Part shown: positions 1,828 through 63,400 of the stretch, piece after piece
Layout of the letters: every line of letters begins with the position of its first letter
Numbering within the stretch: position 1 is the stretch's first letter
Assembly: GCA_965211995.1 (NCBI GenBank)
Contig: OZ243040.1
Location: forward strand, 1,031,620-1,095,619
Length of the DNA stretch: 64,000 nucleotides
Reading direction: 5' to 3'
From: Candidatus Oxydemutatoraceae bacterium
GTDB lineage: Bacteria > Pseudomonadota > Gammaproteobacteria > Poriferisulfidales > Oxydemutatoraceae
Program-made: the position numbers and the translations under genes
The notes under the pieces: generated by a model
What the model was told of the DNA's origin: nothing
The model's input: only the letters and a program-made list of their open reading frames with translations
Database searches by the model: none

Positions 1828-1909
1828 TCAAGTCCGCAACGCAACCCGCCGCAGCCGCGGATAACGCGAATGAACGCAAAGCGGAAACGGCAAGAGACAG
1901 GTTGGATGC

Positions 1910-2010
1910 AAATCTGAAGTGCGGCGTTGACCCGCTGTCCCCCGGCGCCCGCCGCGTCGTCCTTTGCCTTTCCTCTCCCCCGCCGACCGGGCTGCGTGAA
2001 AGTGTCGTCA
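1910..2010. repeat. Partial copy of the roughly 190-bp MITE-like element (TIR-type end tctgaagtgcggcg...)
   Basis: The sequence aatctgaagtgcggcgttgacccgctgtcc...ccgccgaccgggctgcg matches the left portions of the copies at 43115 and 21866. Confidence 0.45.
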
Positions 2011-2171
2011 TGCGGGAGACACTTAAACCCGGGCCTATTTGTGACACGCTTTGCTTTACAGAACGCCGCACCCGGCCCCTCCGTTCATCCACGCCCCCCG
2101 GCGCCAGGCGACCCCAGTACGACCGCCACCACCCCACACCGATCTCCTCCGATCCCGCCATCTCATGTCAA

Positions 2172-7950: not shown

Positions 7951-8246
7951 CTTGTCTCTGTAGATTACAGAAAGGTTAACTTTGAGCCGATGATCTGCTC
8001 TTGTCTATTATAAACATTCGGACGGATTTGAAGCCCGGCGCCGTATCCAATGCACACAACACTACAGCGCGGAAAGCCGAAAAATTGCTGATTTTCCGGT
8101 GGCTGAGAATCTGGCAGAAACACACTAAAGAGAGCACAATCCCTGCCTCTTTAACCCGGAAAAACGACAGATTGCGGTTAGGATAATGATGCCGAAAAAC
8201 CCGATAACTTGAAAGCAGTTGAGATAATGTAGGCGGAGGCAAAACG

Positions 8247-9668
8247 ATGGCGGCAAAAAACAACATGAAAATTTCCGTTGAGAACTATGGCCCTATTGCA
8301 AAGGCGGAGAACATTGAACTTTGCCCGTTGACGGTGTTTGTCGGCCCTGGCAACACGGGGAAATCGTATCTTGCGATTCTGATTTACGCGTTGTTTAAGT
8401 CTTTTGAAGCAAAGCGCTTGATCTTATCGGGTTTCAGAAAGACCGGCGGGGAAAACAGCCAAAAATTAATTTTCGATGCCGAATCCATAACCGGAAATGT
8501 AGTTGATTTTCTAACAGAAATATTAGAAGAAAAGACTGAAGATATTAAATTATCAGATTTTCCTGAAGAACTGCAACAGTGGGTTAACGATGGAATTGCA
8601 CAAGCAGCGGAGCAAAATTTTCAGCGGGAGATTTCCCGTTGTATGGGGATGTCTCAAAAAGAAGGGCGTTCGATAAACACAAGATTGAAACTCAACTTGG
8701 AGGACGACCAAAAAAGACTGATGCTGGCCCCTTCCCCCACGCCCCCGAAGATGGAGATTAAAAATCCAGGCCCTGTAGGAAATATAATGGATAGATTGAT
8801 TGGATTTATGCACTTACAAAAAGATTTGGCACAAGAAATAGCAAAAAGAATGTTTCTCTATTTTATATCAGAGAAGATCCTGCGCCCCCACGGCGAGGTC
8901 AAGTCTTTCTACTTGCCTGCCGCAAGAGCAGGGATTATACAAAGCCAACGCGCTATCACGGGGGCTTTGGTGCAACGGGCCACTTTTGCGGAAACGGAAA
9001 CCTTTTCCGTGCCCCCCCTGAGCGGTATTGCGTCTGACTTCCTGCAGGAAATTATCGCTATGGATACAAGTGAAATTCCTTGCCCCGAAGTGGAAAAGAT
9101 AGCGCAGGAAATGGAAAGGGACATACTGCATGGCTCCATTAAGTCGAAAAGCCCGGAAAGGAATCAATACCCGCAATTTTCATACCAACAGAATGGGGTT
9201 GAAATTCCACTGCTGCGTGCCTCGTCCATGGTCTCGGAACTTGCCCCTGTTGTGCTGCTCATCAGACACCGGGTCGGAAAAGGCGATTTACTTATTATTG
9301 AAGAGCCTGAAGCGCATTTACACCCTGAAGCCCAGAGAAACATTGCAAAAGCGGTTGTCCATCTGGTTCGAGCGGGCGTTCGGGTCATGGTGACAACCCA
9401 CAGCGATTATTTTTTAGATCAACTTGTAAATCATGTCCGCGTTTCAAAATTGAAGAAAAATGAAGAGGGCGATCAACCGCTTCCTTTGCTGAAAGAAGAT
9501 CAAATTGGCGTCTATGTATTTAACAAGTGCACCCAGGGCACCCAGGGCACCATTACTAAAAGGTTGGATTTCGACAAAGAAAACGGATTTTCTCCCGAAG
9601 ATCATGACGAGGTGTCTTCCGGGTTGTATAACCAAACCGTCGAAATTCTGGAACAACTTGATCAATAG
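8247..9668 (+). CDS. ABC-type (AAA_21 / OLD-PtuA-AriA-GajA-like) ATPase; putative phage-defence ATPase with no nuclease partner
   Basis: N-terminal Walker A FVGPGNTGKSYLAILIYAL. C-terminal Walker B and H-loop LLIIEEPEAHLHPEAQRNIAKAVV...VMVTTHSDYFLDQL. 473 aa, in a low-GC context. The RBS is ggaggc 8 nt upstream of the start. Confidence 0.7.
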   Translation: MAAKNNMKISVENYGPIAKAENIELCPLTVFVGPGNTGKSYLAILIYALFKSFEAKRLILSGFRKTGGENSQKLIFDAESITGNVVDFLTEILEEKTEDIKLSDFPEELQQWVNDGIAQAAEQNFQREISRCMGMSQKEGRSINTRLKLNLEDDQKRLMLAPSPTPPKMEIKNPGPVGNIMDRLIGFMHLQKDLAQEIAKRMFLYFISEKILRPHGEVKSFYLPAARAGIIQSQRAITGALVQRATFAETETFSVPPLSGIASDFLQEIIAMDTSEIPCPEVEKIAQEMERDILHGSIKSKSPERNQYPQFSYQQNGVEIPLLRASSMVSELAPVVLLIRHRVGKGDLLIIEEPEAHLHPEAQRNIAKAVVHLVRAGVRVMVTTHSDYFLDQLVNHVRVSKLKKNEEGDQPLPLLKEDQIGVYVFNKCTQGTQGTITKRLDFDKENGFSPEDHDEVSSGLYNQTVEILEQLDQ

Positions 9669-9737
9669 GTGAGCAAGGCGGGGTGAATTTTTCATGCCGC
9701 GTCACAACGGGCAATTTATTTGCCGTCCGAACCTGAC

Positions 9738-10058
9738 TCATGCCCGGGCTTTTGCCCGGCTTGCTTTATGCTTTCCCGGGCGAAAGACTTGGACGTTGCT
9801 CAGAATCTTTTTCTTCCGCCGCTTCGCGCGGGCCATGGAATAGGCGTTTTGAAGACGCATCATGAATTCCGCTTCAGGCCCAAACGCTTTTTCAATCCGG
9901 AAAGCCATTTCAGCAGATAAATCCGCCCGCTCATTCACAAGAGCGGACAGTGCCTGGCGGCTTACGCCAAGCACCGCCGCCGCATTAGTGACGTTGACCT
10001 CCAAAGGCTTGAGTACTTCCTCTAGGAAGATCTAACCCGGATGCACCGGGTTCGCCAT
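9738..10058 (-). pseudogene. HigA-like (XRE-HTH) antitoxin interrupted by an in-frame TAG; no HigB toxin gene present
   Basis: ATG at 10058 encodes MANPVHPG, followed by an in-frame TAG at 10034-10032 where the family has Glu. The frame then continues ...FLEEVLKPLEVNVTNAAAVLGVSRQALSALVNERADLSAEMAFRIEKAFG...LQNAY, which is the plasmid-maintenance antidote HigA/VapI fold. The track ORF starts at a TTG at 10004. Confidence 0.55.
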
Positions 10059-10128
10059 GGGCATTTTTGTTCTCCTTTTATGGGGTTGGAACTTGATTTT
10101 GAACCGGGGGGAAATCAGTTAAACAGAA

Positions 10129-10419
10129 CTAGGAAGTAAAAAGCCTGAACAGCAAGGCGATCATCACCATGCCGACAGTGGCAAGCAACGGTATTAACCA
10201 CTTAAGAGTTTTCATCTCAGCATCCAATCGTCCGAAGTCTTCTTTAGTGGCTAATCCTTCTATTTTAGTTTCTACTCTAGTAAGCCTTTGAAGGATTTCT
10301 TTATCGCCTCCATTGCCACCATCATTATTACGGGATTGCCCCGTATTTATTCCAACAACATTATTGTTTTGTCGATTATCCATTAGACCAATGGCCTTTA
10401 TTTCTTTTGCCAATCCCAC
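10129..10419 (-). CDS. XhlA-like small membrane protein (phage-associated haemolysin/holin-like; coiled coil plus C-terminal TM)
   Basis: ILQRLTRVETKIEGLATKEDFGRLDAEMKTLKWLIPLLATVGMVMIALLF. Low GC. Confidence 0.45.
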   Translation of the reverse strand: MGLAKEIKAIGLMDNRQNNNVVGINTGQSRNNDGGNGGDKEILQRLTRVETKIEGLATKEDFGRLDAEMKTLKWLIPLLATVGMVMIALLFRLFTS

Positions 10420-10652
10420 AGGCTTACGTTATACCACCCGTTCAGGCTTTCTGCTTCTACTACAATTCCAGTACGTTTTTTTTCTTCATTAAAACCTGCA
10501 ACATCCATGACTTCATTGAGGGCACTATCAGTTTTAACAAAAAGCAAATTATCTTCTATTTGAAAACATTGCTCTTTTCCAAATTTTTTGGCTAGATCAT
10601 TCCGTAGAGAACCATTGGAACTGTCTCTTTCATATATTAGATAAACAGACAT
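10398..10652 (-). CDS. Hypothetical small protein (84 aa), low GC
   Basis: An ORF only; it overlaps the upstream gene by 22 nt. Confidence 0.3.
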   Translation of the reverse strand: MSVYLIYERDSSNGSLRNDLAKKFGKEQCFQIEDNLLFVKTDSALNEVMDVAGFNEEKKRTGIVVEAESLNGWYNVSLWDWQKK

Positions 10653-11295
10653 TTGTTAAGTACCGCTCATTAGTTGATGAAACGCTTTTTGTTAATCGTC
10701 TATTGGTTTAAGGGTTTGCGCCTTTCCTTTCAATTATTCAATTGCAGCAATAAAAAAATTCCTTTATTTTGCAATAGGCGCCATCAAAAGCAATGCAACG
10801 CACGCCCACTTGCTTGTTAATAAGCACGTAAATCTGCAGGGCGTGAGGCGCAGGCCATTGTATATAATTTCCCCAAACCAAGGCAATTGCCGTTGGTGGC
10901 GCAAGTCCGGCGCTGCCTCCTTTGCCATACATTTGGCAACAATGACGGCAGACTGTACCGCCTGACTTGATGAGACCCCTTGCGCGGCGCGGTGGCGCAG
11001 CACGAATACCTGCATTGCGTGGCCTGTTGACTCGGCGGAATGAATCGCGTTACGGGGGATATTACTTAACTTATTGATTTTTAATTAAAGTTAAGACATC
11101 TGCGGGAGGAATTTGCGGTCAACTCAACTCCTTCATTGTTGCGGAAATACAACGGCTTGTGGTGAAAACCCTTTACTTGTGGGTATTTAGTTTATATACT
11201 TTAGGGATACGTGCGCCGAGGGGAAGTGATTCCCTGATTTTCCAACAGGCGTGAAAGGTTAACTAACTTTTCAGAATAATTCTGAAAAAAAGAGG

Positions 11296-15311: not shown

Positions 15312-16482
15312 CGCCGTCGCTGGTGAAATACAGCGCGCCGTCAGGCCCGAACGCGACGCCGACAGGCCGCGCGAGGCGCTCGCCCGCGGCGTCCTGAAAG
15401 CCCTCGATCAGGGCCACGACGTCGCCGGCCCTGTCGCCGTTGAAGCGCACCAGCGCAACCCACGGCGGTCGGCGGGTGGCTCTCTCGCCGAAGAAGCCCC
15501 CGTGCGGGCGCGTCGCCCATGAACCGTGCAGTGCGACGGCCGCGTCGCCGGCTTTCACAACCCCCTGAACGCCCCCCTGATCACGCGTTGCAAACGCCAC
15601 GCCCATCGGCCCGTTACGCGCCGGAAACGTCGCGACGGGTGCGGCGGCGTCTTCACGCGGCGGCGTCCCGCCGATGCAGTGGTCACGCTTGATCTCGCGC
15701 CCGTCAAACCAGAACCACGGCATCCCGTGAAACGAGCCTGCTTCCAGGCGCGCGAAATACTCGGGCGGCTGCGCATAGCCGTGATGGTCGGGGCCATGAT
15801 TGCTTGCGTACAACACCCCGCTGCGCGGATGCCAGTCGAAGCCGATCGGGTTGCGCAGACCCGCGGCGTAGGGCTTCCAATACGGCTCCCTGCCTTTTTC
15901 GACCAACACAAACACCCCGCCGCGCCGGTCCTGAAAACGATAACCGTCGTCTAAATACTGATCGCTGCAGTTGCCGCTGATGCCGAGGCTCGCGTAAATC
16001 CGCCGGTCCGGCCCGACGCCGATGCTGCGGCTCGAGTGCCCGCCGCCCGGCGGCAACGCCGCGACCCGCGTGAAGTCGCCGTCTTTGAGAGCACCTTTGG
16101 GAGGGTCGCCCGGACGGTACGGCGCGCGATAAACGCCGTCGTTCTTTGCGACGAACAAGACACCGCTGCGCAACGCAACACCGTGCGGGAAATTGCTGAG
16201 CTCGGCATAGACCGACACGCGCGTATAAGGCGGCTCAATGCGATAGACGCGCCCCGCGTTCGAGCCGGCGAGCAACGCGCCGGTGCCGTCAAACACCATA
16301 AGCCGGGGGCCTTTCATCTCGGCGAGACGTTCGAGCACGTAACCCGCCGGCAGTTTCAACCGCCAAGTCTTGCCGCCGACTTCAAAAGGCTGCTCGGAAT
16401 ACTCAAAGGCCGCGGCGGGCGCGGCGGCGATCACCGCCGCTGCGATGACCGTTCCGAAAACTCTCGACTGCCTCGTGTTCAT
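15274..16482 (-). CDS. PQQ-dependent sugar dehydrogenase (soluble glucose/L-sorbosone dehydrogenase family, beta-propeller)
   Basis: Signal peptide MNTRQSRVFGTVIAAAVIAAAPAAA. Family motifs are present (...NHGPDHHGYAQPPEY..., RNPIGFDWHP). 402 aa. Confidence 0.7.
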   Translation of the reverse strand: MNTRQSRVFGTVIAAAVIAAAPAAAFEYSEQPFEVGGKTWRLKLPAGYVLERLAEMKGPRLMVFDGTGALLAGSNAGRVYRIEPPYTRVSVYAELSNFPHGVALRSGVLFVAKNDGVYRAPYRPGDPPKGALKDGDFTRVAALPPGGGHSSRSIGVGPDRRIYASLGISGNCSDQYLDDGYRFQDRRGGVFVLVEKGREPYWKPYAAGLRNPIGFDWHPRSGVLYASNHGPDHHGYAQPPEYFARLEAGSFHGMPWFWFDGREIKRDHCIGGTPPREDAAAPVATFPARNGPMGVAFATRDQGGVQGVVKAGDAAVALHGSWATRPHGGFFGERATRRPPWVALVRFNGDRAGDVVALIEGFQDAAGERLARPVGVAFGPDGALYFTSDGGVLEGLFRLRRM

Positions 16483-16945
16483 TGCGACGACTTAAAGACA
16501 CTTGATGCCGTCAAAATTATTTCCTTTGAGCAAAGCGCGTTCATCGCGGCACCTCAAAGCAGCGGCGGCGGCGCGTCTGCCGGCCTCAACCCCCCCGCTT
16601 GCGAATACAGTTTAACGGCAATCGCCTCGATTACGCGGGCGAGCGCGTCTTCAATGCCCCCCTCAAGTTGATTGTGCCCGACGCCGTTGACCGCCGCTGC
16701 GATGACCGCCCCGAAAACTTTCGACTGCCTCGTGTTCATCGCGACGACTTAAAGACACTCGATGCCGTCAAAATTATTCCCTTTGAGCAAGCGCGTTCAT
16801 TGCAGCCCCTCAAAGCAACGGCGGCGGCGCGCCTGCCAGCCTCAAACCCCCGCCTGCGAATACAGTTTAACGGCAATCGCCTCGATCACGCGGGCGAGCG
16901 CGTCTTCGATGCCCCTTTCGTGTTGATTGTGCCCGGCGCCGTTGA
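16436..16945. repeat. Roughly 255-bp tandem duplication (2 copies, about 92% identity) of the pip 3' end, the intergenic spacer and the gsdh 5' end
   Basis: The units begin accgccgctgcgatgaccg(t/c)(t/c)ccgaaaact at 16436 and 16691. Copy 1 creates the chimeric ORF 16554..16739 (MNTRQSKVFGAVIAAAV joined to the pip C-terminus GIEDALARVIEAIAVKLYSQAG). Confidence 0.75.
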
Positions 16946-17804
16946 CTATGGTCACCGAACCCTGCGGCCAACGCTGCGCCAGGGCGTAGGCCGACAGCGG
17001 CGGGCACAGCAGGTCGTAGCGCGCTTGCACGATTCCCCCCGGCACATCGCGCAGCCGGCCGGCCTCAGCGAGCAATTGCCCGGGCCGCAAAAAGCAGCCG
17101 TGCGAAAAATAATGCGCCTCCATGCGCGGCGTCGAAGGCCGCGGCCTGTCGTCCGCTGCACGTGCGCTGGCGGCGAGGTCGGGCAAGTCCGGACATAATT
17201 CCGACAACGCACGCTCGTAATCGTGCCATACGTAACTTGCGGGCAGCGACACCGCCGGGTCGTCATCCAGAATACGCCGGTAATACGCCGCGAGCGGCGC
17301 CGGCCTTTCGGCTTCGGGGAGATAAGCGATGAACGCCGCGTACAACTCAGGGTAGATCATCCGCGGCAGCGTGATGAACGCACACTGCAACTCGTCTGCG
17401 CCGCCGAGGAACAGCGAGCGCACGGCGATGCCGGTGGTGCGCTCGGGATGGGCTTCGGCGTAAGCAATCGCGAGCAGCGCACCCCACGAACCGCCGACCA
17501 CGAGCCAGCGTTCAATGCCGAAACGCTCGCGCACCGTCTCGAGGTCGGCGATCAAATCCTGCGTGGTATTGCTCTCGAGGCAGCCCTTCGGCGTGCTGTC
17601 GCCGGCGCCGCGCTGATCGGGCGCGATGATGCGGAAATAGCGCAGATCAAACAGGTCCCACAGCGAGGAATGGCAGCCGCTGCCCGGTCCGCCGTGCAGA
17701 AACACAACGGGGATGCCGTCGGCGTCGCCGTATTCCTTGACCGACAGCGTATGCGGAGGGGCGACGGCGATCTCGTGCCGGTCAACGGGTTCAACTTCCG
17801 GCAT
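16842..17804 (-). CDS. pip: Prolyl aminopeptidase (proline iminopeptidase, S33 alpha/beta hydrolase)
   Basis: MPEVEPVDRHEIAV...VVFLHGGPGSGCH and WLVVGGSWGALLAIAYAEAHPERT (the GGSWG nucleophile elbow). Start chosen at Met 17804; the track ORF extends to 17873. Confidence 0.85.
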   Translation of the reverse strand: MPEVEPVDRHEIAVAPPHTLSVKEYGDADGIPVVFLHGGPGSGCHSSLWDLFDLRYFRIIAPDQRGAGDSTPKGCLESNTTQDLIADLETVRERFGIERWLVVGGSWGALLAIAYAEAHPERTTGIAVRSLFLGGADELQCAFITLPRMIYPELYAAFIAYLPEAERPAPLAAYYRRILDDDPAVSLPASYVWHDYERALSELCPDLPDLAASARAADDRPRPSTPRMEAHYFSHGCFLRPGQLLAEAGRLRDVPGGIVQARYDLLCPPLSAYALAQRWPQGSVTIVNGAGHNQHERGIEDALARVIEAIAVKLYSQAGV

Positions 17805-18912: not shown

Positions 18913-19440
18913 GTCCGTAAAAACCCCTTGTCGGCCAAGTCTTGAAACATCGCGGTCATGTCCTTCAATCTCCGCTCCGCGGGCGCGTTGTTGGTCGCGC
19001 TGAGTGTGGCCGGGCGAGGCGGCCATTGCAAGTTTGGATCAGCATCGTTGCACCCATCAGCAAACGCGCTGAATATGGCCGGGCGAGGCGGCCATTGCAA
19101 AAGACGGCGGTGCGTCAATTCACACAGCCCGGACACCGGCAGGCCGACGCCGCTCATGTCCGTAAAAACCCCTTGTCGGCCAGGTCTTGAAACATCGCGG
19201 TCATGTCCTTCAATCTCCGCTCCGCGGGCGCGTTGTTGGTCGCGCTGAGTGTGACCGGGCGAGGCGGCCATTGCAAGTTTGGATCAGCATCGTTGCACCC
19301 ATCAGCAAACGCGCTGAATATGGCCGGGCGACGCGGCCATTGCAAAAGACGGCGGTGCGTCAATTCGCACAGCCCGGACACCGGCAGGCCGACGTCGCTC
19401 ATGTCCGTAAAAACCCCTTGTCGGCCAGGTCTTGAAGCAT
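18900..19440. repeat. 245-bp tandem repeat, about 3 copies, duplicating the pqqD 3' end and pqqE 5' end junction
   Basis: Track ORFs 18909..19271, 19154..19534, 18942..19190 and 19187..19435 are offset by exactly 245 nt. Each copy encodes ...KDMTAMFQDLADKGFLRT (stop) then MSGVGLPVSGLCELTHRRLLQWPPRPA.... There is a nested 24-nt sub-repeat tgcaatggccgcctcgcccggcca. Confidence 0.8.
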
Positions 19441-19671: not shown

Positions 19672-19732
19672 GCAGCGCGCACGGTCGCCGCTTGGGGCGC
19701 CGTTTTGACCGCCGTTCTGAGCGGTCGCCGGG

Positions 19733-39640: not shown

Positions 39641-39680
39641 TCCATATACGGCGCGAGCGCTTCAGGCAGACGCCAATTTC

Positions 39681-43345: not shown

Positions 43346-43394
43346 CGGCGCATCCCCGCTGAGCGCAGCAAACCTTACCCGCCTGCGTCATCTG

Positions 43395-51711: not shown

Positions 51712-52722
51712 TTGATGAACGACCGCTGGCAACAAGAATTGCAAAACTCGGTCACGCGCGTCGCCGATCTTTTGCACGCGCTCGAACTCGACCCCGACGA
51801 GTTGCCGTTCGCCCGCGATATCAAAGACTTCCCGACGCGGGTGCCGCGCCCTTATCTCGCGCGCATACGCAAGCGCGACGCCGGCGACCCGCTGCTGCGC
51901 CAGGTGCTGCCGGTCGCCGACGAGACCATTCATTCCCCCGGATACGCCGTTGATCCGGTCGGCGATCTCGGCGCGCACCGCGGCGGCGGCGTCCTGCACA
52001 AATACCACGGCCGGGTGCTGCTGGTCGTCACCGGCGCCTGCGCGATCCACTGCCGCTACTGCTTCCGCCGCCACTTCCCCTACGCCGGGCACGCGCTCGC
52101 ACGCAGCCTCGACCGCGCGCTCGCCTACGTCGCGCGCGACGCGAGCGTCGAGGAAGTCATTCTGAGCGGCGGCGACCCGCTGAGCCTGAGCAACCCGCGG
52201 CTGTTTGAGTTGTGCCGGCGGATCGAAAGCATCGCCCACGTACGGCGCATCCGCATACACACCCGCCTGCCGATCGTCGTGCCGTCGCGTCTGGAAGACG
52301 AGTTATGCAACTGGCTCAACCGCCGCCCGAAACGCTACCTCGTGGTCTTCCACATCAACCATCCGGCGGAGATCGCAACCGACGTCGAGCGCGCGGTATC
52401 ACGCCTGACGGCGCCGACGCTGATGAACCAGGCGGTGCTGCTCAAAGGCGTGAACGACGACGCCCGCACCCTCGCCGACCTGAGCCGCAAGTGCTTCGGC
52501 GCGGGCATTTTGCCGTATTACCTGCACCTGCTCGACCGCGTGCGGGGCGCGGCGCATTTCGAAGTCGACGCGGCGCGCGCGCAGGCGCTGATGCGCGAAC
52601 TTGCAACCCTGCTTCCGGGGTATCTCGTACCGCGGCTTGCACGCGACGACGGCGGCCCCTCAAAACAATTCCCGCTGCAACACGCCGGCAGTGAACGCCC
52701 GCGTCCTTCGCGCACAACTTGA
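51712..52722 (+). CDS. epmB: EF-P beta-lysylation protein EpmB (lysine 2,3-aminomutase-like radical SAM, YjeK)
   Basis: CAIHCRYCFRR is the radical-SAM motif. The C-terminus LPGYLVPRLARDDGGPSKQFPL matches the YjeK end. It is divergent from efp-epmA. Confidence 0.88.
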   Translation: MMNDRWQQELQNSVTRVADLLHALELDPDELPFARDIKDFPTRVPRPYLARIRKRDAGDPLLRQVLPVADETIHSPGYAVDPVGDLGAHRGGGVLHKYHGRVLLVVTGACAIHCRYCFRRHFPYAGHALARSLDRALAYVARDASVEEVILSGGDPLSLSNPRLFELCRRIESIAHVRRIRIHTRLPIVVPSRLEDELCNWLNRRPKRYLVVFHINHPAEIATDVERAVSRLTAPTLMNQAVLLKGVNDDARTLADLSRKCFGAGILPYYLHLLDRVRGAAHFEVDAARAQALMRELATLLPGYLVPRLARDDGGPSKQFPLQHAGSERPRPSRTT

Positions 52723-52880
52723 TCCACCCGTGCCGAGGCTTGCACGCGACGACGGCGGCCCTTCAAAACAATTCCCGCTGCAACACGCCGGCAGTGAACG
52801 CCCGCGTCCTTCGCGCACAACTTGATCCACCCGTGCCGAGGCTTGCACGCGACGACGGCGGCTCTTCAAAGCAGTCCTCG
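52632..52880. repeat. 102-bp tandem repeat, about 2.5 copies, duplicating the last roughly 30 codons of epmB
   Basis: cttgcacgcgacgacggcgg.c.ttcaaaacaattcccgctgcaacacgccggcagtgaacgcccgcgtccttcgcgcacaacttgatccacccgtgccgagg is repeated. Track ORFs 52601..52825 and 52719..53468 re-encode ...VPRLARDDGGPSKQ.... Confidence 0.7.
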
Positions 52881-52924
52881 GATTCAAGCCTGAACACAAC
52901 GTCTGCCCGTCATCCTCTTGTGCC

Positions 52925-53080
52925 TGTCCGCCTCATCTGTGGATTTATCTTTGACCGGGCTGTCTTGTTTGAGCCTCAGGCGATGCCGCGCAACGCTTGC
53001 CTTCTTCCTTTTACCGCACTCCGGACTGAAAGAAGTCCCCGCTCCCGCATCAACCGCAAGCCGTCGTCGAAAGACGCCGG
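52925..53080. repeat. Dispersed repeat family 2, copy B
   Basis: cgcctcatctgtggatttatctttgacc...cttgtttgagcctcaggcgatgccgcgc...gcactccggactgaaag matches 24545-24760. Confidence 0.5.
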
Positions 53081-53173: not shown

Positions 53174-54058
53174 TTACCTCCGCTCGAGTGCGCCGATGCG
53201 CTCGGCGAGCGGTGGATGGCTCATGAACAGGCGCTTCAGCCCCGTAGCGCCGCCGCCCCTGATGCCGAAAGCCGCGAACTGCTTCGGCAGGTCGGGGGTT
53301 TCGTGCACCGCTTGCAGGCGCTTGAGCGCGGCGATCATCCGGTCGCGTCCCGCGAGGCGCGCACCGCCCTCGTCGGCACGGAATTCACGGCGGCGTGAAA
53401 ACCACATAACGATAGTCGTCGCCAGGATCGACAAGACGATCTGCGCGAGGATCGAAGTGATGAAGTAGGCCGGACCGTAGCCGTGTTGCGATCTGAACAC
53501 CACGCGGCTCACGATATGGCCGATGATGCGCGACAGGAAAATCACGAACGTATTGATCACGCCCTGGATCAGGGTCAGCGTCACCATATCGCCGTTGGCG
53601 ACGTGGCTGATCTCGTGGCCGAGCACCGCCTCGACCTCGCCGGGTTCCAGCGTGTGCAACAGCCCCTCGCTGACCGCGACCAGCGCCTTGTTGCGGAACA
53701 TCCCGGTTGCGAACGCGTTCGGCTGCGACGACGGAAAAACCCCGACTTCGGGCCTCGCGATGCCCGCGGCTTCGGCCTGCCGTGCGACCGTATCAAGCAG
53801 CCATTTTTCCTTGCCGCCGCCCGGCCCGGCGATGACTCTGACACCCAGCGAGCGCTTCGCCATCGCCTTCGACATCGCGAGCGAAATAAAGGCGCCGGAC
53901 ATGCCGAACGCCGCCGAGATGATCAGCAAACCGGTCAGGTTGAGATCCGATCCGCTTCTTAAGAGCAGGTTTTCAACGCCGAACAGGCTCAGCGTAATGT
54001 TCAATACGAACAAAACCGCGAGGTTGGTCGCCATCAGCAAAGCGATCCTTGTCAACAT
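53174..54058 (-). CDS. htpX: Protease HtpX (M48 zinc metalloprotease, membrane)
   Basis: HEISHVANGD is HExxH. Four TM segments. 294 aa. Confidence 0.9.
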   Translation of the reverse strand: MLTRIALLMATNLAVLFVLNITLSLFGVENLLLRSGSDLNLTGLLIISAAFGMSGAFISLAMSKAMAKRSLGVRVIAGPGGGKEKWLLDTVARQAEAAGIARPEVGVFPSSQPNAFATGMFRNKALVAVSEGLLHTLEPGEVEAVLGHEISHVANGDMVTLTLIQGVINTFVIFLSRIIGHIVSRVVFRSQHGYGPAYFITSILAQIVLSILATTIVMWFSRRREFRADEGGARLAGRDRMIAALKRLQAVHETPDLPKQFAAFGIRGGGATGLKRLFMSHPPLAERIGALERR

Positions 54059-54640
54059 AGCGCATCCTCCACTTCGAGACGGTCAATGCTGCGGCAGCTC
54101 TGAGGCAACTTGTGCCCGCGCCGCAATGTTCAATACGAACAAAACCGCGAGGTTGGTCGCCATCAGCAAAGCGATCCTTGTCAACATAGCGCGTCCTCCA
54201 CTCCGAGACGGTCAACGCTGCGGCAGCCCTGAGGCATCTTGCGCCCGCGCCGCAATGTTCAACACGAACAAAACCGCGAGATCAGTCGCCATCAGCAAAG
54301 CGATCCTCATCAGCATAGCGCGTCCTCCACTTCGAGACGGTCAACGCTGCGGCAGCCCTGAGGCAACTTGTGCCCGCGCCGCAATGTTCAACACGAACAA
54401 AACCGCGAGATCAGTCGCCATCAGCAAAGCGATCCTCATCAGCATAGCGCGTCCTCCACTTCGAGACGGTCAACGCTGCGGCAGCCCTGAGGCAACTTGT
54501 GCCCGCGCCGCAATGTTCAACACGAACAAAACCGCGAGATCAGTCGCCATCAGCAAAGCGATCCTCGTCAGCATAGCGCGTCCTCCACTTCGAGACGGTC
54601 AACTTTGCGGCAGCCCTGAGGCAACTTGCGCCCGCGCTGC
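54057..54640. repeat. 129-bp (43-codon) tandem repeat, about 4.5 copies, duplicating the htpX promoter-proximal region and first roughly 20 codons
   Basis: The unit boundaries, marked by atagcgcgtcctccact(t/c)cgagacgg, are at 54057, 54186, 54315, 54444 and 54573. On the minus strand each unit contains ATG CTG ATG AGG ATC GCT TTG CTG ATG GCG ACT GAT CTC GCG GTT TTG TTC GTG TTG AAC ATT GCG ... TGA. That is a 34-aa [37 protein letters not shown], which is a copy of the HtpX TM1. Confidence 0.8.
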
Positions 54641-57156
54641 CCGCGCCGGCCGCGGTAATGCGCCAGATCGGCGAACGCGATGCGCTTGAGGCGGCGCCCG
54701 GCATGCACGATCAGCGTCTGTCCCGGCTGCACGCAGATCGCGGCCGCAAGGCTTTCCTCGCCTGAAGCCAGGCGGCTTTTCGGTATATTGATCAACTTGT
54801 TGCCCCGCCCCTTTGACAATACCGGAATCTCCGCCAGCGGCACGACCAGCATATAGCCTGCGCTGCCGACCGCCACGGCGAGACCGGTCTTCGGGTCGCC
54901 CGCGGACGCCGCGGCGAGCGCGTGCGCGCCTTGGGGCACGCTCAACACTTGCTTGCCGGCGCGCTTGTGCGAGACGGTGTCGCCGAAACGCACCAGCAGT
55001 GCATAGCCGTGGCTGCTCGCGAGCAGATGCAAGCGGTCGCCGCCGCCGGTCATCACGCCGACGAAGTTCGTCGCTTCCGACAATGAAAAACAACTGCTGA
55101 GCGGCTCGCCCTGCCCGCGCGGCGACGGCAGGCTGCGCGCAGGCAGGCTGTAGCAACGGCCGCGCCCGTCGAGGAAAACCGCGTCGCGGCGGTTGTCGCC
55201 GCGCGCGATCGCGAGGAAAGCGTCTTTGGTGCGGTATTCAAGCGCCGCGGCGTCAACCTCGTGCCCGCGCACCACGCGCACCCACCCCATCCTCGACAAT
55301 ACGATCGAAAGATTTTCGACCGGCACCAACTGTTCATGTTTAAGTTCCTCGGCCGCGCCGCGCGCGACCAGCCGGGTGCGCCGTTCGTCGCCGCAGGCTG
55401 CGACGTCCGCCTTGAGTTCTTTTTTGACCAGGGTCTTCAGGCGCCGCGCCGACTTCAGGTACGCTTCGACGTCTTTTTTCTGCGCGCTCAGTCTCCGCTG
55501 CTCCTCGCGGATACGGATTTCCTCGAGTTTCGACAACTGGCGCAAACGGATCTCGAGGACCGCGCGCACCTGCACCTCGCTGAGCTTGAAGCGGCGCATC
55601 AACTCGGCCCCGGGGTCGTCCTCCTTGCGAATGATCGCGATCACCGCATCGAGATTGAGATACACGATCATCAGCCCGCCGAGTTCTTCGAGACGGCGGT
55701 TGATCTTAGCGAGGCGCCACGCGAGGCGGCGGCGGACCGTGTCCTTCCTGAAGTCGAGCCATTCGCCGAGCAGTGCCTTGAGCGTTTTGACCTGCGGCTT
55801 GCCGTCGTTGCCGATCACGTTGAAATTGACGCGGCGGTTGTATTCGAGGTCGGTGGTCGCGAACAGGTGCGACATCAGGCGCTCGCGGTCAACGCGCTTG
55901 CCGCGCGGCACCAGCACGAGCCTGACCGGATGCTCCTGGTCGGACTCGTCGCGCAGGTCCTCGATCCACGGCAATTTTTTGTCCCTGACCTGCGCCGCGA
56001 TCTGCTCGAGCACGCGCGTCGCCGACACCTGGTACGGCAGCGAAGTGATTACGATCTCGCCCCGCTCGACAACGCAGGTCGCGCGGATGCGGATCATCCC
56101 GGCGCCGTGCTCGTAGATCCCGCGCACGTCCCCGGTGTCGCTGACAATCTCGGCGCCGCCCGGAAAATCCGGCCCGCGCACGTCTTCAAGCAACTCGGCC
56201 AGCGTCGCTTTGGGCGAGTCGAGCAGGCGGATGCACGCCGCCGCCACTTCGCCGAGGTTGTGCGGCGGGACATCGGTCGCCATGCCGACGGCGATGCCCG
56301 AGGTGCCGTTCAGCAACAGGTTCGGCAGCCGCGCCGGCAGGCGCACGGGCTCCTCGAGCGTGCCGTCGAAGTTCGTGCGCCAGTCGGTCGTGCCCTGATC
56401 CAACTCTTCGGTCAGCGTCTTGGCGTAGGCGCTCAGGCGCGCTTCGGTGTAGCGCATCGCCGCGAACGACTTGGGGTTGTCAATCGAGCCCCAGTTGCCC
56501 TGTCCGTCGATCAGCGGGTAGCGGTAACCGAAAGGCTGCGCCATCAGCACCATCGCCTCGTAGCAGGCGGCGTCGCCGTGCGGGTGATACTTGCCGATCA
56601 CGTCGCCGACCGTGCGTGCGGACTTTTTCGGTTTGGCGCCGGCGTTGAGTCCGAGTTCGGACATCGCATAAACGATCCGCCGCTGCACCGGCTTCAGACC
56701 ATCGCCGAGAGCGGGCAGCGCGCGGTCGAGCACGACGTACATCGAGTAGTCGAGGTAGGCGCGCTCGGCGAACTCGACCAGCGGAACCCGGCTGGCGGGG
56801 GCGGCGGGGACGGCTTGCCGCGGGGGCTTGCCGCCGCCTTTCTTGACCGGGGCGCCGGCTTCAAGTTTGAACGCCGGCCCGTCGTCCTCTTGCGTCCGTC
56901 CGCGGCGTCTTTTGTATTTCCCCCCACCGCCCGGGCTGCGCCCGGCCGACTTTCCCTCAAGGGGAGAGTGTTCTTCAGCGGCCTGCGCTTTTTTCTTTGG
57001 CCGCACTTCGGACTGGAAGTTGGCGGCTTCCTTTACGACAGATTTCTTTGCGCCGGCTTTAGCGGATTTTTTCTTCGCGGCCACCTTGACGGATTTTTTC
57101 TTCGCGGCTTCCTTAGCGGCTCTCCGGACGGCGCCTTTTGCAACGACTCTTGCCAC
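54568..57156 (-). CDS. parC: DNA topoisomerase IV subunit A (ParC), with an unusual N-terminal extension
   Basis: The conserved core starts ...[44 protein letters not shown] at about 56800 and carries the active-site Tyr region ...[10 protein letters not shown]. There is no ATG/GTG/TTG between the MITE copy and the core. The only in-frame starts are a GTG inside the MITE (about 56990) or the GTG at 57156, which lies 5 nt after the HAD-gene stop. The latter would add an Ala/Lys-rich tail, [22 protein letters not shown]. Confidence 0.8.
56865..57020. repeat. MITE-like element copy (inverted orientation relative to the copy at 58155) inside the parC 5' region
   Basis: ggcttcaagtttgaacgcc...gtcttttgtatttcccccc...ccctcaagggg...ccgcacttcggactgg. 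Confidence 0.6.
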
Positions 57157-57160
57157 CGCG

Positions 57161-58090
57161 TCACTCGCTCAAATGACCGGGCGCAGTGCCGACGCTGCTT
57201 TCGAGTTGGCGCGCGCGCCGCTCGACGATGCCGTCGGCGACGTCTCTCGCGGTGCGCATCAGCCAGCGCCAGGTCGGCGTATCGGTGCGGTAGTCGGCCG
57301 GCCCCATCGCATCTACGCGCCGCTCCTTGTGCAGCAGGTCGTAGGCCTGGTCGTAGGCGAGTTCGGAGTGCGGATTGTGCACCGCGTAAGTGCGTCCGCC
57401 GAGGCGCTTGACCACCGAAAACACCGGCACGTCGCTCGGCCCGTCGGCGACGTAGATCATCTGCGGGATCGGCACGCGCCGCTCGCTTTCCTCCATGCGC
57501 GCGTTCACGTCGATGCCGGGCTCGACGTTGACGCCCTTGTTGATCTCGAAAATCGCGCGCGTCTTGGTGGTGTGATCGAGCACGTAGCCGATCGAAGACA
57601 AGCGCGTGCGCCCGTCGCCGCCCCGCTCGTCGAGCAACTCGCAGCCCCACACCCCGTCGAGATGACCGTGCAACGCGCTGCCGGCGATCATCTGCCGCAG
57701 GCCGGTGCTGACGACGTAGTGCTCGACCTTGATGTCGTGCGCTTGGTACGGCTCGCGTTCCAGCACCCGCTTCATCTCGTCGAAAAATTCCGGCAACCCC
57801 GGATAGAACTCAAGTTCGGCGCCGAGCGCGCGCAATTTGTCGTTGTTCAGCCCCTCGAAGACGCCGCGGCGCACGTAATCGAGAATATGACTCAGGTACA
57901 GCACCTCGTTGGACGTCTGATCGCAACCCTGCTCCTTGTACTTATCGGGCAGTTGATTGACTTCGTCCCAGAAAGCGCGCTCCTCAATGCCGTAGGCGGC
58001 GAACAGCGGCGCCTGCATGTGACCCGGAATCAGGGTCTTGTCAAAATCCCAGATCACCGCGACGATGTTTTGCGAAAAAAACTGCGTCAT
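57161..58090 (-). CDS. HAD-superfamily hydrolase
   Basis: Motif [13 protein letters not shown] (DxDxT). 309 aa. It lies between parE and parC and is bracketed by an inverted MITE pair. Confidence 0.65.
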
Positions 58091-58154
58091 GCCGGAGCCT
58101 GCGCGAGATTGCCCCTGCCGGCGAGCCGTCCGCGGCGCCCGTAGCCGGGAATTT

Positions 58155-58320
58155 CAACTGCCAGTCCGAAGCGCGGCCAACGGCAGAAAAGCAGGCCGCC
58201 GAAAATCACTTTTTCCCTGAGGGGAAGCCGGCCGGGCGCAGTCCGGCCGGTGGGGGGAAATACAAAAGACGCCACGGACGGACGCAAGAGGACGGCGGGA
58301 CGGCGTTCAAACTTGAATCC
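58155..58320. repeat. MITE-like element copy, flanked by a roughly 155-bp divergent duplication of the parE 3' end / HAD 5' end junction (57985-58140 against 58340-58500)
   Basis: ccagtccgaagcgcgg...ccctgaggggaagccggccggg...ggtggggggaaatacaaaagacgcc...cgttcaaacttgaatcc. The upstream duplicate retains the first roughly 35 HAD codons (MTRLFSQTLVAVIRDFGKTLIPG...) fused to nothing. Confidence 0.6.
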
Positions 58321-58445
58321 GGCGCCCCGGAAAGCGCGCTCCCCGAAGCCGCAGGCGGCGAACAGCGGCGCCTGCACGCAGCCCGGGATCAGGGTCTTGC
58401 CGAAATCCCGGATCACCGCGACGAGGGTTTGCGAAAACAACCGCG

Positions 58446-60335
58446 TCATGCCAGATCCTGCGCGAGGTTGCCCTTGTCGGCGAGCCATGCGCGGCGCTCG
58501 GACGCACGCTTGCGTGCAAGCAGCATGTCCATCGTCTCCTCTTCGGCGGCGCCCGCTGCGTGCACCAGTTGCAGCAGGCAGCGGCGCTCCACGATCATCG
58601 TGGATTCCCTGAGTTGTTGCGGGTTCATCTCGCCGAGTCCCTTGAAGCGCGTGATCCGCGCGCGCGCCGCGTCCCTCTGCGTAAGACCCGCGAGGCAGCG
58701 GTCGCGCTCCTCTTCGTTGTTCGCGTAGTGCACGTCCTTGCCGACGTCGATGCGAAACAGCGGCGGCACCGCGACGTAGGTGTGCCCGGCGGCGACCAGT
58801 TTCGGAAAGTGCCTGACGAACAGCGCGGCGAGCAAAGTCGAGATGTGCAGCCCGTCGGCGTCGGCGTCGGCGAGGATGCAAACCTTGCCGTAACGCAGCC
58901 CGGCGAGGTCGTCGCTGCCGGGCTTGACCCCGATCGCGGTCGCGATGTCGTGGATCTCCTGCGATGCGAGCACGTCGTCGGTGGCGGCCTCCCAGGTGTT
59001 CATGATCTTGCCGCGCAGCGGCATCACCGCTTGGAAGCGCCGGTCGCGCGCCTGCCGCGCCGAGCCGCCCGCCGAGTCGCCCTCGACCAGGAACAACTCG
59101 TTCTCGCCGAGGTCGCTCGAAGCGCAGTCGGCGAGTTTGCCCGGCAGCGCGAGGTTCAGGAACATGCTTTTGCGCGGCTGCTTTGCGTTCTTGCGGCGGC
59201 GCTTGTGCGCGTTCGCGAGCGCGAGTTCGACGATGCGTCCGCCCTCGCGCGGGTGGCGGTTCAGCCACAGGCTCAGCGCGTCTTTGGTCACGCTTTGCAC
59301 CACCGCGGCCGCTTCCTTGTGGGTCAGGCGCTCCTTGGTCTGGCCCGCGAACTGCGGATTTTCGATCTTCAAGGACAGCAGGTAGCAGACGTTCGACCAA
59401 AAGTCGTCGGGCGCCGGCTTGACGTTCTTCGGCGTCAATTCATGGAACTGCATGAACTCGCGCACCGCCTCGACAACCCCCGCGCGCAGGCCGCTGACGT
59501 GGCTGCCGCCCTGCGGCGTCGGCACCAGATTGACGTAACTCTCGGCGGGCGGCGGCGCGTCCTCGCCGACCCAGTTCAAGCACCACGCCAGTTCGTGGTC
59601 CTCGCCCGCGTGGCTGTCGCTGATGTTCTCGCCGAGCAGCAAGACGCACCCGTCGGCGAGCGAGTTGAAGTATTCGGGCAGCCCGTTCTGATAGCACCAC
59701 TCGCTGCGGTCGCCGCCGCGCTCGTCTTCGAGCGTGATGCGCAAGCCCGGACACAGCACCGCCTTTGCGCGCAGCAACCGGCGCAGACGTTTGCGGTCGA
59801 AGCGCACGCTGTCGAAAAACTCAGGGTCGGGGCGGAAGCGGATAGCCGAGCCCGAGGCGCGTTTTGCCGTCTTGCCGACCTCTGCGAGCGGACCCGTCGC
59901 CTTGCCGCCGCTGAAAGCCATGTTGTATTCCTTGCCGCCGCGCTTGATCCAGATCTCGAGGTGCTGCGACAAGGCGTTGACCACCGACACGCCGACCCCG
60001 TGCAGGCCGCCGGCGTAGCGGTAATGGCGGTCCGAGAACTTGCCGCCCGAATGCAGCGTCGTCAAAATCACCTCGACGCCGGAGCATTTGCGCTGAGGGT
60101 GCTTATCCACCGGCATGCCGCGCCCGTCGTCGCGCACGCTCAGCGAGTGGTCGCGGTGCAGCGTGATCTCGATCACGCCGGCGTGTCCCGCCAGCGCTTC
60201 ATCCACGCTATTATCTATGACTTCCTGCGCAAGATGGTCGGGGCTCGCGGTGTCGGTGTACATGCTCGGGCGCTTTCGCACCGGGTCGAGCCCGCTCAGG
60301 ATCTCGATTGAAGCCGCATCGTAGGAGGCGTGCAT
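58446..60335 (-). CDS. parE: DNA topoisomerase IV subunit B (ParE)
   Basis: MHASYDAASIEILSGLDPVRKRPSMYTDT...EVIDNSVDEA are the GHKL ATPase motifs. A Toprim EGDSAGGS is present. 630 aa, matching ParE size rather than GyrB. The 50 extra N-terminal codons in the track are Arg-rich junk. Confidence 0.88.
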   Translation of the reverse strand: MHASYDAASIEILSGLDPVRKRPSMYTDTASPDHLAQEVIDNSVDEALAGHAGVIEITLHRDHSLSVRDDGRGMPVDKHPQRKCSGVEVILTTLHSGGKFSDRHYRYAGGLHGVGVSVVNALSQHLEIWIKRGGKEYNMAFSGGKATGPLAEVGKTAKRASGSAIRFRPDPEFFDSVRFDRKRLRRLLRAKAVLCPGLRITLEDERGGDRSEWCYQNGLPEYFNSLADGCVLLLGENISDSHAGEDHELAWCLNWVGEDAPPPAESYVNLVPTPQGGSHVSGLRAGVVEAVREFMQFHELTPKNVKPAPDDFWSNVCYLLSLKIENPQFAGQTKERLTHKEAAAVVQSVTKDALSLWLNRHPREGGRIVELALANAHKRRRKNAKQPRKSMFLNLALPGKLADCASSDLGENELFLVEGDSAGGSARQARDRRFQAVMPLRGKIMNTWEAATDDVLASQEIHDIATAIGVKPGSDDLAGLRYGKVCILADADADGLHISTLLAALFVRHFPKLVAAGHTYVAVPPLFRIDVGKDVHYANNEEERDRCLAGLTQRDAARARITRFKGLGEMNPQQLRESTMIVERRCLLQLVHAAGAAEEETMDMLLARKRASERRAWLADKGNLAQDLA

Positions 60336-60473
60336 GATTAAAAGCAAGGTGATAAACGATGAATTATAAACCAGGCCCTCCGACGTCGGACGCCGACCGG
60401 CCCGCGCCGCGGCACGCCCGCAGCGGCGGCGGCGGGCATTAACGCGACGACGACACCGAACGCTGCGGCGGCG

Positions 60474-63400
60474 ATGAACACCCACACCACGACGGCCCTA
60501 AACGTAATTGAGGCGGCGGCGCCGAACGTCAACGCGGCGGTGTCGGCTTCCGCCGGCACCGGCAAGACCTGGCTGCTGGTGACGCGGCTGCTGCGGCTGC
60601 TGCTCGCCGGGGAACCGCCCGCCTCGATCCTCGCGATCACGTTCACGCAGAAAGCCGCCGCTGAGATCCGCACAAGGCTGACCTCGACGCTGCGCGACTG
60701 GACGCGCGCCGACGACGCCGCGCTCAAGCGCGAACTCGAGCACCTCGGCGCCGCGCCCGCGCAGGTGCGGCGCGCGCGCGCACTGTACGAAACGCTGATC
60801 TACGCCGAAAACGACATCCGCATCCTGACCTTCCACGCGTTCTGCGCGGAGATCCTCGAGCGCTTTCCGTTCGAGGCCAAAGTCCCGCCGGGGTTCGAGA
60901 TCTGCACCGAGGAATGGGAGTTGCAGGACGAGGCGCTGAACCGGTTGTACACGGCGGCGGCCGGTCCCGCTCAGGCCACGGCGCGGGCGCTGCAAACGTT
61001 GTTTGAAGCCTGCGGCGGGCTGGCCAGCACCAACCTCGCGCTCAGGAACTTCCTGAACCACCGCAACGACTGGCTCGCCTACGTCGAACCGGACACACAA
61101 ACGCCGGCGCAGACCGCGACCCGGCACTTGAGCGAAATGCTCGGCGTCGAGCCCGAAGACGCCGAACGCGGCATCGTGCTCGACGCGCCGACGCGCGAAC
61201 TGCTCGCACGGCACGCGCGGCTGCTCGCGCTGCACGACACCCAAACCTTCCGCGGACACACCGCTGCGATCGACCACTTTCTCGCGTCCGGCGCGGAAGC
61301 CGGCGCGGAAACGCTGCCGGCGCTGCTCGACTGCTTTTTCAAACGGGACGGCGGCGAGCGAGCGCACGAATTCACGGGCAACGCGTTCCGCCAGGCGCTG
61401 GGCCCCGAGTACGCCGAGTTTGACGCCGGGCGGGCGGCGCTGGCCGCAACGCTGACGACGCTCAAGGAAGTGTTACTCAAGCGCCGGACCTTGTGCCGCA
61501 ACCGCGCGTGGTACGTCGCGGGACAGCACCTGGCCGACATCTACCGCGAACTCAAACTCGCGCGCCGCCAACTCGACTTCAACGACCTCGAATGGCTCGC
61601 GTGCCGCGTATTGAACCGCGAAGACGACGCGCAGTGGATCCAGTACCGCCTGAACGAGCGCATCCGCCACGTATTGGTTGACGAATTCCAGGACACCAAC
61701 CCGCAGCAGTGGCAACTGCTCAAGCCGCTGCTCGAAGAAATGGCGTCGCAGCAGGACGGCGGCAGCGCGTTCATCGTCGGCGACGTCAAGCAGTCCATCT
61801 ACGGGTTCCGCCGCGCCAGCCCGGAGTTGCAGGACGAAGCCGGGAACTGGCTGTGCCGGCACATGGGCGGGCGGCTTTACACCACCGACGTCTCGCGGCG
61901 CTCCTCGCCGGCGGTGGTCGAATTCGTCAACCGCGTGTTCGACCCGGCCGGCGGGAACGAGGACGGCGGCGGCGGTGAACGCGGCAAAGCGCCGATGCTG
62001 CCCGGCTTCAGGACGCACGTCAGTCATCTCGATACGCCGGGCGGCGTCATCGTGCTGCCGTTCGCCGAAAAACAACCGGCCGCGGAGGCGCCGCGCGAGT
62101 GGCGCCGCATCCTGCGCGACCCGCCCGCGCCCGGCGGCGCTTTGCCCGCGCTCGCGGAAGGCGAGCGGATCGCCGCGTACATCGCGCGCATGGTCGGCGA
62201 CCGCGTCGCCGTGCACGACCGCGACGGCCGCGTGCGCCCGCTGCGCTTCGGCGACGTCACCTTGCTGTTGCGGAGACGCACGCGGCTCGACTGCTACGAG
62301 CAGGCGCTGGTCAAGGCCGGCATCCCCCACACCAGCGGGCGCACGGAAAAACTGTTCGGCTCGCTCGAAATCGCGGACCTGCTCGCGCTGCTTCAATTCC
62401 TGGTCAACCACGAGCGCAATCTCGATCTTGCGCAGGTGCTGCGCAGCCCGATCTTCGCCGCCACCGACGAGCAGTTGATCGCGCTGGCGCAAACCGCGGA
62501 CGGCTGCTGGTTCGCGCGTCTCGGGCGGCAGCACGGCGACGCCGGCCTGCAACGCGCACACGCATTGCTCAGCGACTGGATCGAGGCCGCGCGCACGCGG
62601 CTGCCGGCGCACGACCTGCTCGACCGCGTCTATCGCGAAGGCGACGTAATCCACCGCTACCGCTGCGCCGCGCCGGACGAGGAACAAGACCTGGTCGAGA
62701 AAAACCTGGTGAGCCTGCTCGACCACTCGCTCGAATTTGAAAGCGGGCGCTACCCGGACGTCGCGCATTTCGCGCGCAGCCTGAAGCGCCGCATCGCGCG
62801 CGCCCGCGGCGGGCGCGCGGCGCTGACGACGAGCATCGAACCCGACGACCTCGACCGCGTGCGCATCCTGACCATCCATCAGGCGAAAGGCCTCGAAGCG
62901 CCGGTGATCGTCCTCGCCGACTGCGGCAAGCAGAAAAAAAAAGCCGGCGCCTACGGCGTGCTCGCCGACTGGCCGCCCCACGGCGAACAGCCCGCCAACT
63001 TCCGGCCCGAAACGCGGCCCAAGGAAGCCGGGCAGGCCGCTGAAAATCGCCCCCCCCTCGGGGGGGAGGCGCCCGGGTTGCACCCGGCCGGTGGGGGGGA
63101 ATACACAAAACAACGCGGGCGGGCGCCGGAAGACGACGGGGCTACGCCGCACTTCAGACTTGAATCCGGCCCCGCGCATTTCCTGCTGGTGCCGAAATCC
63201 GGCCACGTTGACGCTTTCACCGAACAGTGCAAGCGCCGCCTCGAACAACGCGAAGCGAGAGAAGACGCGAACCTGCTGTACGTGGCGTTGACGCGCGCGC
63301 GCCAGTACCTGGTCATCTCAGGCAGCGGCAGCGAGCCCGCGGCCGACTGGTACGGGCTGCTCGAATCTCGCGCACCGAAAACGGTGACGGAGTTTGAAAC

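Follow-up and report, generated by a model that had tools for sequence, protein, structure and literature searches.

An old, apparently lineage-restricted MITE-like element with in-frame copies in housekeeping genes of a Candidatus Oxydemutatoraceae bacterium

In-frame fusions with host genes are made by Rickettsia palindromic elements (RPEs) and by other intragenic MITEs (transposable elements that are miniature and carry inverted repeats) (PMC10969869; PMC5896051). Here, we describe a repeat family of similar behaviour in a 64-kb stretch of DNA from Candidatus Oxydemutatoraceae bacterium (GenBank assembly GCA_965211995.1, contig OZ243040.1, positions 1,031,620–1,095,619). This whole stretch, which has a G + C content of 61%, is referred to as the window, and all coordinates are window positions. 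Nine copies of the family, bounded by imperfect terminal inverted repeats (TIRs), are found in the window. Two of them lie open and in frame inside parC and addA, and both insertions are missing in the relatives compared. The family is an old, apparently lineage-restricted MITE-like element that acts like an RPE.

According to Ogata et al. (2000), as summarised in PMC10969869, RPEs are palindromic repeats of about 150–180 bp that occur in many copies. A sizeable fraction of these lies in frame in unrelated housekeeping genes, where a conserved peptide is added and the protein stays intact, and neither a transposase nor a clear mobilising enzyme is associated with them. The element described here resembles RPEs in these respects. 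It differs in its host, a gammaproteobacterium with 61% G + C as opposed to an AT-rich alphaproteobacterium, in its Gly/Pro/Arg/Glu-rich and probably disordered peptide, and in the share of genic copies (two of the nine in the window). Judging from host phylum and base composition, homology to RPE-1 to RPE-10 is unlikely, and the likeness described here is one of behaviour.

Bacterial MITEs, such as QMITE1 and QMITE2 of Coxiella burnetii (PMC5896051) and the Correia/NEMIS and ERIC families, share with the element a small size, TIRs, dispersed copies and subfamilies with common ends. Some MITE copies overlap open reading frames (ORFs) and encode basic peptides, and the 2–3 nt direct repeats of variable sequence at QMITE1 resemble the candidate 3-bp duplication discussed below (PMC5896051). 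Compared to active MITE families, however, the present copies are far more diverged, and no evidence of a small RNA or promoter function was obtained for the element. Its behaviour matches that of RPEs, and more loosely that of intragenic MITEs such as Coxiella QMITE1.

The repeat family and its copies in the window

When the window was scanned with the TIR core CCGCRCTTCRGACT, 10 matches were found, while 0.18 were expected. A longer TIR pattern yielded 13 matches against 1.1 expected, 12 of which are true arms. A prediction made earlier from the letters of the window (hereafter the original prediction) had proposed a single repeat family at nine places. This is supported by the present analysis, since the nine candidate loci align as one family with a common architecture and all of them were recovered by nhmmer in the window. 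As a guard against circularity, the profile was rebuilt from the five full-length copies only and a leave-one-out search was run for each of these; every core copy was found by the other four at E ≤ 2e-29. The core-only profile also detected 21865–21988 (1.5e-14), 1904–1995 (1e-11) and 52879–53033 (1e-9). At 24491–24714 it matched the two ends only (1e-3 and 0.02), and this locus was joined to the family via 74% identity with 52876–53038. The nine copies comprise five full-length core copies, two copies of which the 3′ part only is preserved and two copies of a variant B.

Copies range from 163 to 248 nt in length, are dispersed and occur in both orientations. They sum to 1,703 nt, which corresponds to 2.7% of the window. 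The earlier view of the family as a major genome constituent is overstated, being extrapolated from this one window. Pairwise identities between core copies are 71–85%, indicating that the copies are old.

Two full-length core copies are genic, namely those in addA (62993–63171, plus strand, nhmmer E 2e-47, read as ANFRPETRPKEAGQAAENRPPLGGEAPGLHPAGGGEYTKQRGRAPEDDGATPHFRLESG) and in the N-terminal tail of parC (56853–57025, minus strand, E 7e-49). The nearest relative of the parC copy, with 85% identity, is the full-length core copy at 58152–58324 (plus strand, E 7e-48), which is located between parE and a HAD gene and is antisense to both. The copies at 56853 and 58152 form the inverted pair that had been noticed to bracket the HAD gene. 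This arrangement is real; a composite transposon was considered for it and ruled out, as the HAD gene lies between parE and parC also in the element-free relatives L064 and L065. The other two core copies are intergenic. The copy at 39671–39836 (plus strand, E 2e-42), just downstream of serS as identified by Pfam, combines the best-kept TIR (20 of 24 positions) with a short deletion in its interior. The copy at 43103–43350 (minus strand) is situated between a Na/H exchanger gene and a giant gene with He_PIG repeats; it gave two nhmmer matches (43196–43349, 7e-40, and 43108–43178, 1e-9), and alignment revealed that about 75 nt within it are duplicated in tandem.

Both degenerate copies are on the minus strand. 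At 21855–22041, the 3′ two-thirds (21865–21988, profile positions 56–169) and a single TIR arm are recognisable, and at 1900–2089, upstream of adk, the 3′ half (1904–1995, profile positions 87–175) and again one arm. The original prediction had all copies sharing the TIRs; these two each keep one recognisable arm. The variant-B copies are likewise on the minus strand. The first, at 52876–53038, was matched by the core-only profile over positions 6–176; both of its ends (about 40 nt each) are those of the core family and its middle is different, which corrects the earlier statement that the variant shares one end only. It adjoins a tandem array of 2.4 units of 103 nt detected with Tandem Repeats Finder. 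The second, at 24491–24714, was delimited by TIR alignment (TIR of 32 nt, 26 of 32 positions matching) and lies directly upstream of a gene for a MoxJ-like binding protein with a TTG start.

The consensus of the element is 177 bp long, from GCC to GGC (GCCAACTTCCAGTCCGAAGYGCGGCC ... CGCCGCACTTCAGACTTGAAKCCGGC), with ends of the GCCAACTTCCAGTCCGAAGYGCGG type. The TIRs are imperfect and span 24–32 bp (about 27 bp in the consensus), with 20 of 24, 20 of 27 and 26 of 32 positions matching in the best copies and decay in the others; consistent differences separate the 5′ arm TTCCAGTCCGAAG from the 3′ arm TTCAAGTCTGAAG. A tacaaaagacg core and the palindrome cccctcaagggg had been described as common to all copies; exact or near-exact versions were found in three to four copies only. 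The consensus amounts to 59 codons, with three of the six frames free of stops, and those copies that lie in genes are open and read in frame, which contradicts the earlier claim of no coding capacity. The resulting peptide is Gly/Pro/Arg/Glu-rich and of low complexity. This 59-codon open frame is all that the element offers, and a transposase ORF is lacking. Small size, absence of a transposase ORF, imperfect TIRs and multiple dispersed copies are MITE features, and the label MITE-like fits in these points.

In-frame copies in ParC, AddA and other proteins

The two insertions into genes named in the original prediction, in parC and in a helicase gene (addA), were confirmed. In both genes the element is sense-oriented and open, and its translation uses the same reading frame, ending in FKLEAGA in ParC and running from ANFRPETRPKEAG to HFRLESG in AddA.

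The gene parC (54568–57156, minus strand, 862 codons) codes for topoisomerase IV subunit A (PF00521, E 8e-134, domain from residue 145). The extent of its ORF was set by a frame analysis based on the G + C content at third codon positions (GC3) and by Pfam, and the annotated ParC (P0138, 862 aa) contains the element peptide. The copy sits in a Lys/Ala-rich N-terminal tail. In an alignment with the relatives L064 and L065, the ParC tails of both were found without the element; L065 has a short tail, whereas that of L064 is enlarged by repeats of 93 nt. Tandem expansions of this tail are located at 6016–6360 of L064 (93 nt × 3.7) and at 57043–57106 of the window (27 nt × 2.4). Within this clade, the N-terminal tail of ParC is hypervariable.

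The gene addA (60474–63998, plus strand) continues past the end of the window and codes for a UvrD-type helicase-nuclease (Pfam UvrD-helicase and PDDEXK_1). Its product in the window is 100% identical to P0001, the full protein of 1193 aa from the 1,943,614-nt source contig, while the best relatives found by BLASTP share 55–64% identity; the named distant relatives belong to Gammaproteobacteria. In an alignment of 15 sequences, an insert of 60 aa is present in the source protein only and missing in all 14 homologues. It is placed between ...TIHQAKGLEAP... and ...LLYVALTRAR..., which we take to be motifs V and VI of superfamily 1 helicases. L064 and L065 are syntenic with the window (M48-parC-HAD-parE beside a divergent addA) and neither holds a copy of the element. 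Their empty addA sites read GAACGGCCCGACCATTTCCTG and GACCGCCCCGCGAATTTCCTG, and the filled site of the window reads GAACAGCCCGCCAACTTCC...[180 extra nt]...GAATCCGGCCCCGCGCATTTCCTG, exactly 180 nt more than the empty site. The insertion is clean, with no host duplication beyond 5 nt. An AlphaFold 2 model of AddA keeps the fold and shows the insert (residues 836–897) as an unstructured loop between two strands with predicted local distance difference test (pLDDT) values of 24–29, which is weak evidence that the insert is disordered.

Copies also occur outside the window. A profile built from three element peptides in one frame was searched against 1.84 billion representative proteins and gave five clear matches (P0126, P0127, P0129, P0132 and P0134), the remainder being low-complexity matches; a concatenated query added only SecA (P0137) and ParC (P0138) of the source organism. 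All seven proteins map to a single contig of 1,943,614 nt, and all but ParC are coded outside the window. Proteins coded elsewhere on this contig contain nine additional copies that are read through, which brings the total to at least 18 copies and bears out the expectation that the family extends beyond the window. In SecA, residues 4–524 and 641–935 match residues 9–532 and 541–835 of E. coli SecA; the roughly 116 extra residues after the GRGTDIVLGG motif comprise five repeats of 11 residues and, after these, the element peptide. In RibE, 64 additional residues fall precisely between positions 82 and 83 of structure 4e0f, and in GspB the element peptide is found in a linker. Because a single-frame profile was used to find the copies in SecA, RibE and GspB, these are biased toward that frame. 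No Pfam domain was detected by a Pfam scan over the insert in ParC or the other host proteins. In the hypothetical protein P0126 (409 aa), a unit comprising the element peptide and 19 SecA residues is present three times in tandem.

Searches of other genomes, metagenomes and viral collections revealed no true copy, and the peptide profile found nothing outside the source genome among the 1.84 billion proteins. The 19-mer GCCGCACTTCRGACTKRAA, which has four matches in the window, gave scattered single hits at chance level in unrelated taxa among 185,579 GTDB species representatives, JGI metagenomes and IMG/VR, collections from which the source genome itself is apparently absent. When element profiles were applied to these 19-mer loci, short and weak matches to the seed region were obtained in L011, L014, L018 and L066 only, none of them full-length. 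A word-indexed protein search with the peptide alignment missed even the AddA of the source, so its negative outcome is uninformative. The family seems to be restricted to one genome or lineage in the public data searched.

Selfish DNA inserted in frame into essential genes is best documented in Rickettsia. The element is a second clear example, from a GC-rich gammaproteobacterium unrelated to Rickettsia. An extra loop of about 60 residues is present in each of at least four core enzymes (topoisomerase IV, AddA, SecA and riboflavin synthase). These inserts illustrate a route from mobile DNA to lineage-specific protein insertions and provide natural experiments on protein sites that tolerate large loops. 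For annotators, they are a reminder that inserts of this kind should be taken neither for errors nor for inteins. The practical reach is small, as the family seems confined to a single genome in the data searched.

Mode of spread and competing explanations

We favour, with moderate confidence, the interpretation as a non-autonomous, MITE-like TIR transposon that is able to persist in tolerant protein regions owing to its open frames and its length of whole codons. The element would be mobilised in trans by a transposase that is coded elsewhere or has since been lost. A 3-bp target duplication added to the 177 nt would create a 180-nt insert and keep the host frame, 180 nt being the value measured at addA. 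Given the length of 59 codons, the stop-free frames and the 3-bp duplication, copies in tolerant sites, such as disordered tails and surface loops, would survive and be translated as an extra loop of about 60 residues. The copies are old and probably no longer mobile.

For the target site, the comparison with the empty addA site, the one site with such a comparator, shows CCC or CCCGC repeated at both junctions, an ambiguous repeat of 3–5 bp. With the ends set at GCC...GGC, the 3-nt flanks match perfectly at addA (CCC/CCC) and parC (GCC/GCC). This 3-bp flank pattern is suggestive.

Several observations weigh against the transposon interpretation. The flank match occurs in two of the five copies only and the boundaries were picked after looking, so that the target-site duplication is ambiguous. 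No autonomous insertion sequence (IS) with matching ends was found in the window ORFs scanned or among plasmids; no transposase domain was detected in those window ORFs scanned with Pfam, and the plasmid collection contained neither a match to the element nor a related IS. The identity of 71–85% between copies gives no sign of recent transposition. A 178-nt duplication around one copy and the duplication of the SecA copy together with host flank, both described below, are not predicted by a simple cut-and-paste transposase. The use of one reading frame is unbiased evidence for two genes only, and agreement by chance would be expected in about one of three cases with three open frames. Finally, the low pLDDT over the AddA insert is expected anyway, because no other alignment row covers the insert.

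Two of these observations are what spread by recombination or replication (template switching, segmental duplication) would leave, that is, copying without a TIR transposase that at times takes host DNA along. Such copying would land in new sites and would create, or be captured at, the tandem-duplication junctions that are rife in this lineage. The copy at 58152–58324 is bracketed by two direct repeats of 178 nt (85% identical) in an A-E-A arrangement, and on both sides the repeats end about 10 nt or less from the element. The first repeat (57964–58141, find_repeats family D12) contains the functional HAD start and a pseudo 3′ end of parE, and the second (58323–58500, from the alignment) contains the real 3′ end of parE and the decayed first 42 HAD codons. 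The repeated unit spans the junction of the two genes, with 51 nt from the end of parE and 127 nt from the start of the HAD gene; these genes overlap in L065 as an ATGA stop/start, the ancestral state. The second observation is P0126 with its three units of element and genuine SecA sequence. The SecA residues read ADWWAWHEAVVAAG in P0126 and ADWQARHEAVVTAG in SecA itself, and P0126 is 67% identical to SecA over 82 aa without gaps. Judging from the sequences, the SecA copy was duplicated along with its host flank. The internal 75-nt duplication of copy 43103–43350 and tandem arrays within 100 nt of four copies and beside the SecA copy point in the same direction. If replicative copying were true, the 178-nt duplication, the triplicated unit of element and SecA and the abutting arrays would be the footprints of the mechanism. 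However, L064, the closest relative, has the same kind of junction duplications and no element, and the AddA insertion of 180 nt is clean; the link between element and duplications is therefore treated as possibly coincidental. Elements and arrays also both crowd the small intergenic space, and their proximity may be due to chance. Overall, we regard spread by recombination or replication as unlikely. An association of the element with tandem arrays as such was rejected, as it is not significant by our own estimate given the intergenic preference of both.

The arms of the element are also reminiscent of repetitive extragenic palindromic (REP) sequences. In a REP doublet forming hairpins (REPIN), two inverted palindromic REP units and a spacer are moved without target duplication by a REP-associated tyrosine transposase (RAYT) of the IS200/IS605-like type. 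GC-rich inverted arms, the many copies in spacers and the absence of an obvious target-site duplication are in line with this type, as is a small hairpin in each arm (ACTTC-CAGTCC-GAAGT and TTCA-GACT-TGAA) that is visible in the folds. In contrast to a REPIN, the element is longer and its internal 120 nt are as conserved as the arms, which is not expected of a spacer. REPs are extragenic, whereas copies of the element were found inside parC, addA, secA and ribE. Neither a RAYT nor any other Y1 transposase was detected in the window ORFs scanned, and whole-element folds are not unusually stable. A REPIN-type origin is accordingly rather improbable.

A function as a selected cis-acting RNA or DNA signal, either a structured RNA or a bidirectional or intrinsic terminator cassette multiplied for its usefulness, was weighed as well. 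On the reverse strand of the core copies, a simple terminator scan identified a weak GC hairpin followed by TCTTTTGT; three copies are located at convergent gene ends, and both in-gene copies carry the hairpin/T-run motif on the antisense strand. The number of terminator-like sites in the region (18) is, however, not above that in shuffled sequences (19.4), and in a convergent spacer either orientation is downstream of a gene. Folding had been suggested with the original prediction as a check for stable RNA hairpins, and the stability of the whole-element folds did not exceed that of dinucleotide shuffles (z = −0.75, +0.59 and −0.41). RNAalifold applied to the five core copies returned an unfavourable covariation term of +4.74. 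Changes in the arms are uncompensated: the copy at 62993 is changed in the 5′ arm only, and in the copies at 56853 and 58152 a loss of 6 nt is confined to the 3′ arm. No Rfam match was obtained at the gathering threshold or at E ≤ 1, and no intron families were hit. Taken together, these values make a selected signal very unlikely.

A role of the 60-residue peptide as a functional module of proteins, with the intergenic copies as its decayed coding remnants, is highly improbable, since the shared frame in ParC, AddA, SecA, RibE and GspB, open also in the intergenic copy at 58152–58324, is set against unrelated host proteins, a low-complexity peptide without Pfam match that is missing from all homologues, a peptide profile confined to this genome among 1.84 billion proteins, and inverted repeats at the DNA level with both orientations in spacers, which point to a DNA element. 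Two further candidates were ruled out: an intein, with an insert of only 60 aa and Pro as the downstream AddA junction residue, and an intron, with no Rfam intron families found.

Gene-junction duplications and other gene content of the window

Independently of the element, many diverged tandem duplications (90–97%) of 100–260 nt copy gene junctions in the window. They were observed at 53996–54637, 18862–19494, 39145–39588, 52626–52870, 41266–41726 and 16419–16790. As an example, a 129-nt unit occurs five times between parC and the M48 peptidase gene and repeats the last 23 parC codons; in L065, parC and the M48 peptidase gene overlap. Similar duplications are present in L064 (371 nt × 2, 93 nt × 3.7 and 323/394-nt repeats at the parE end) and none in L065. 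Since those of L064 occur without any element, the duplications do not depend on it, and they look like a lineage trait of their own. A 50-nt unit (GTTTCATCTCCGCCTTAACCAATCGCCTTATCTGCGGGGCATTGCGCCCC) present 3.7 times at 43411–43596 adjoins the element copy at 43103–43350, and the TTATCTGCGG motif in this unit is similar to CATCTGCGGATTTAT, a motif found midway in the variant-B copies.

Compared to the window average of 61%, a low-GC island (42–50%) is located at about 8000–11000 and holds a gene for an AAA_15 ATPase (8247–9668). This gene matches the PADLOC models PD-T4-4_A (5e-39) and AriA, and no partner gene for it was identified. The island is probably an acquired anti-phage defence locus.

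Six further loci (17791–21402, 25419–27218, 35383–37128, 27495–29231, 38302–39165 and 43753–49098) contain pqqB/C/E, genes for two pyrroloquinoline quinone (PQQ)-dependent dehydrogenases, a MoxJ-like binding protein with cytochrome c and a formate-tetrahydrofolate ligase, as well as genes for an ankyrin-repeat protein and a protein of 1781 aa with He_PIG Ig-like repeats. Such a set of genes suggests that the organism is methylotroph-like and possibly associated with a host, its genome being small (1.94 Mb).

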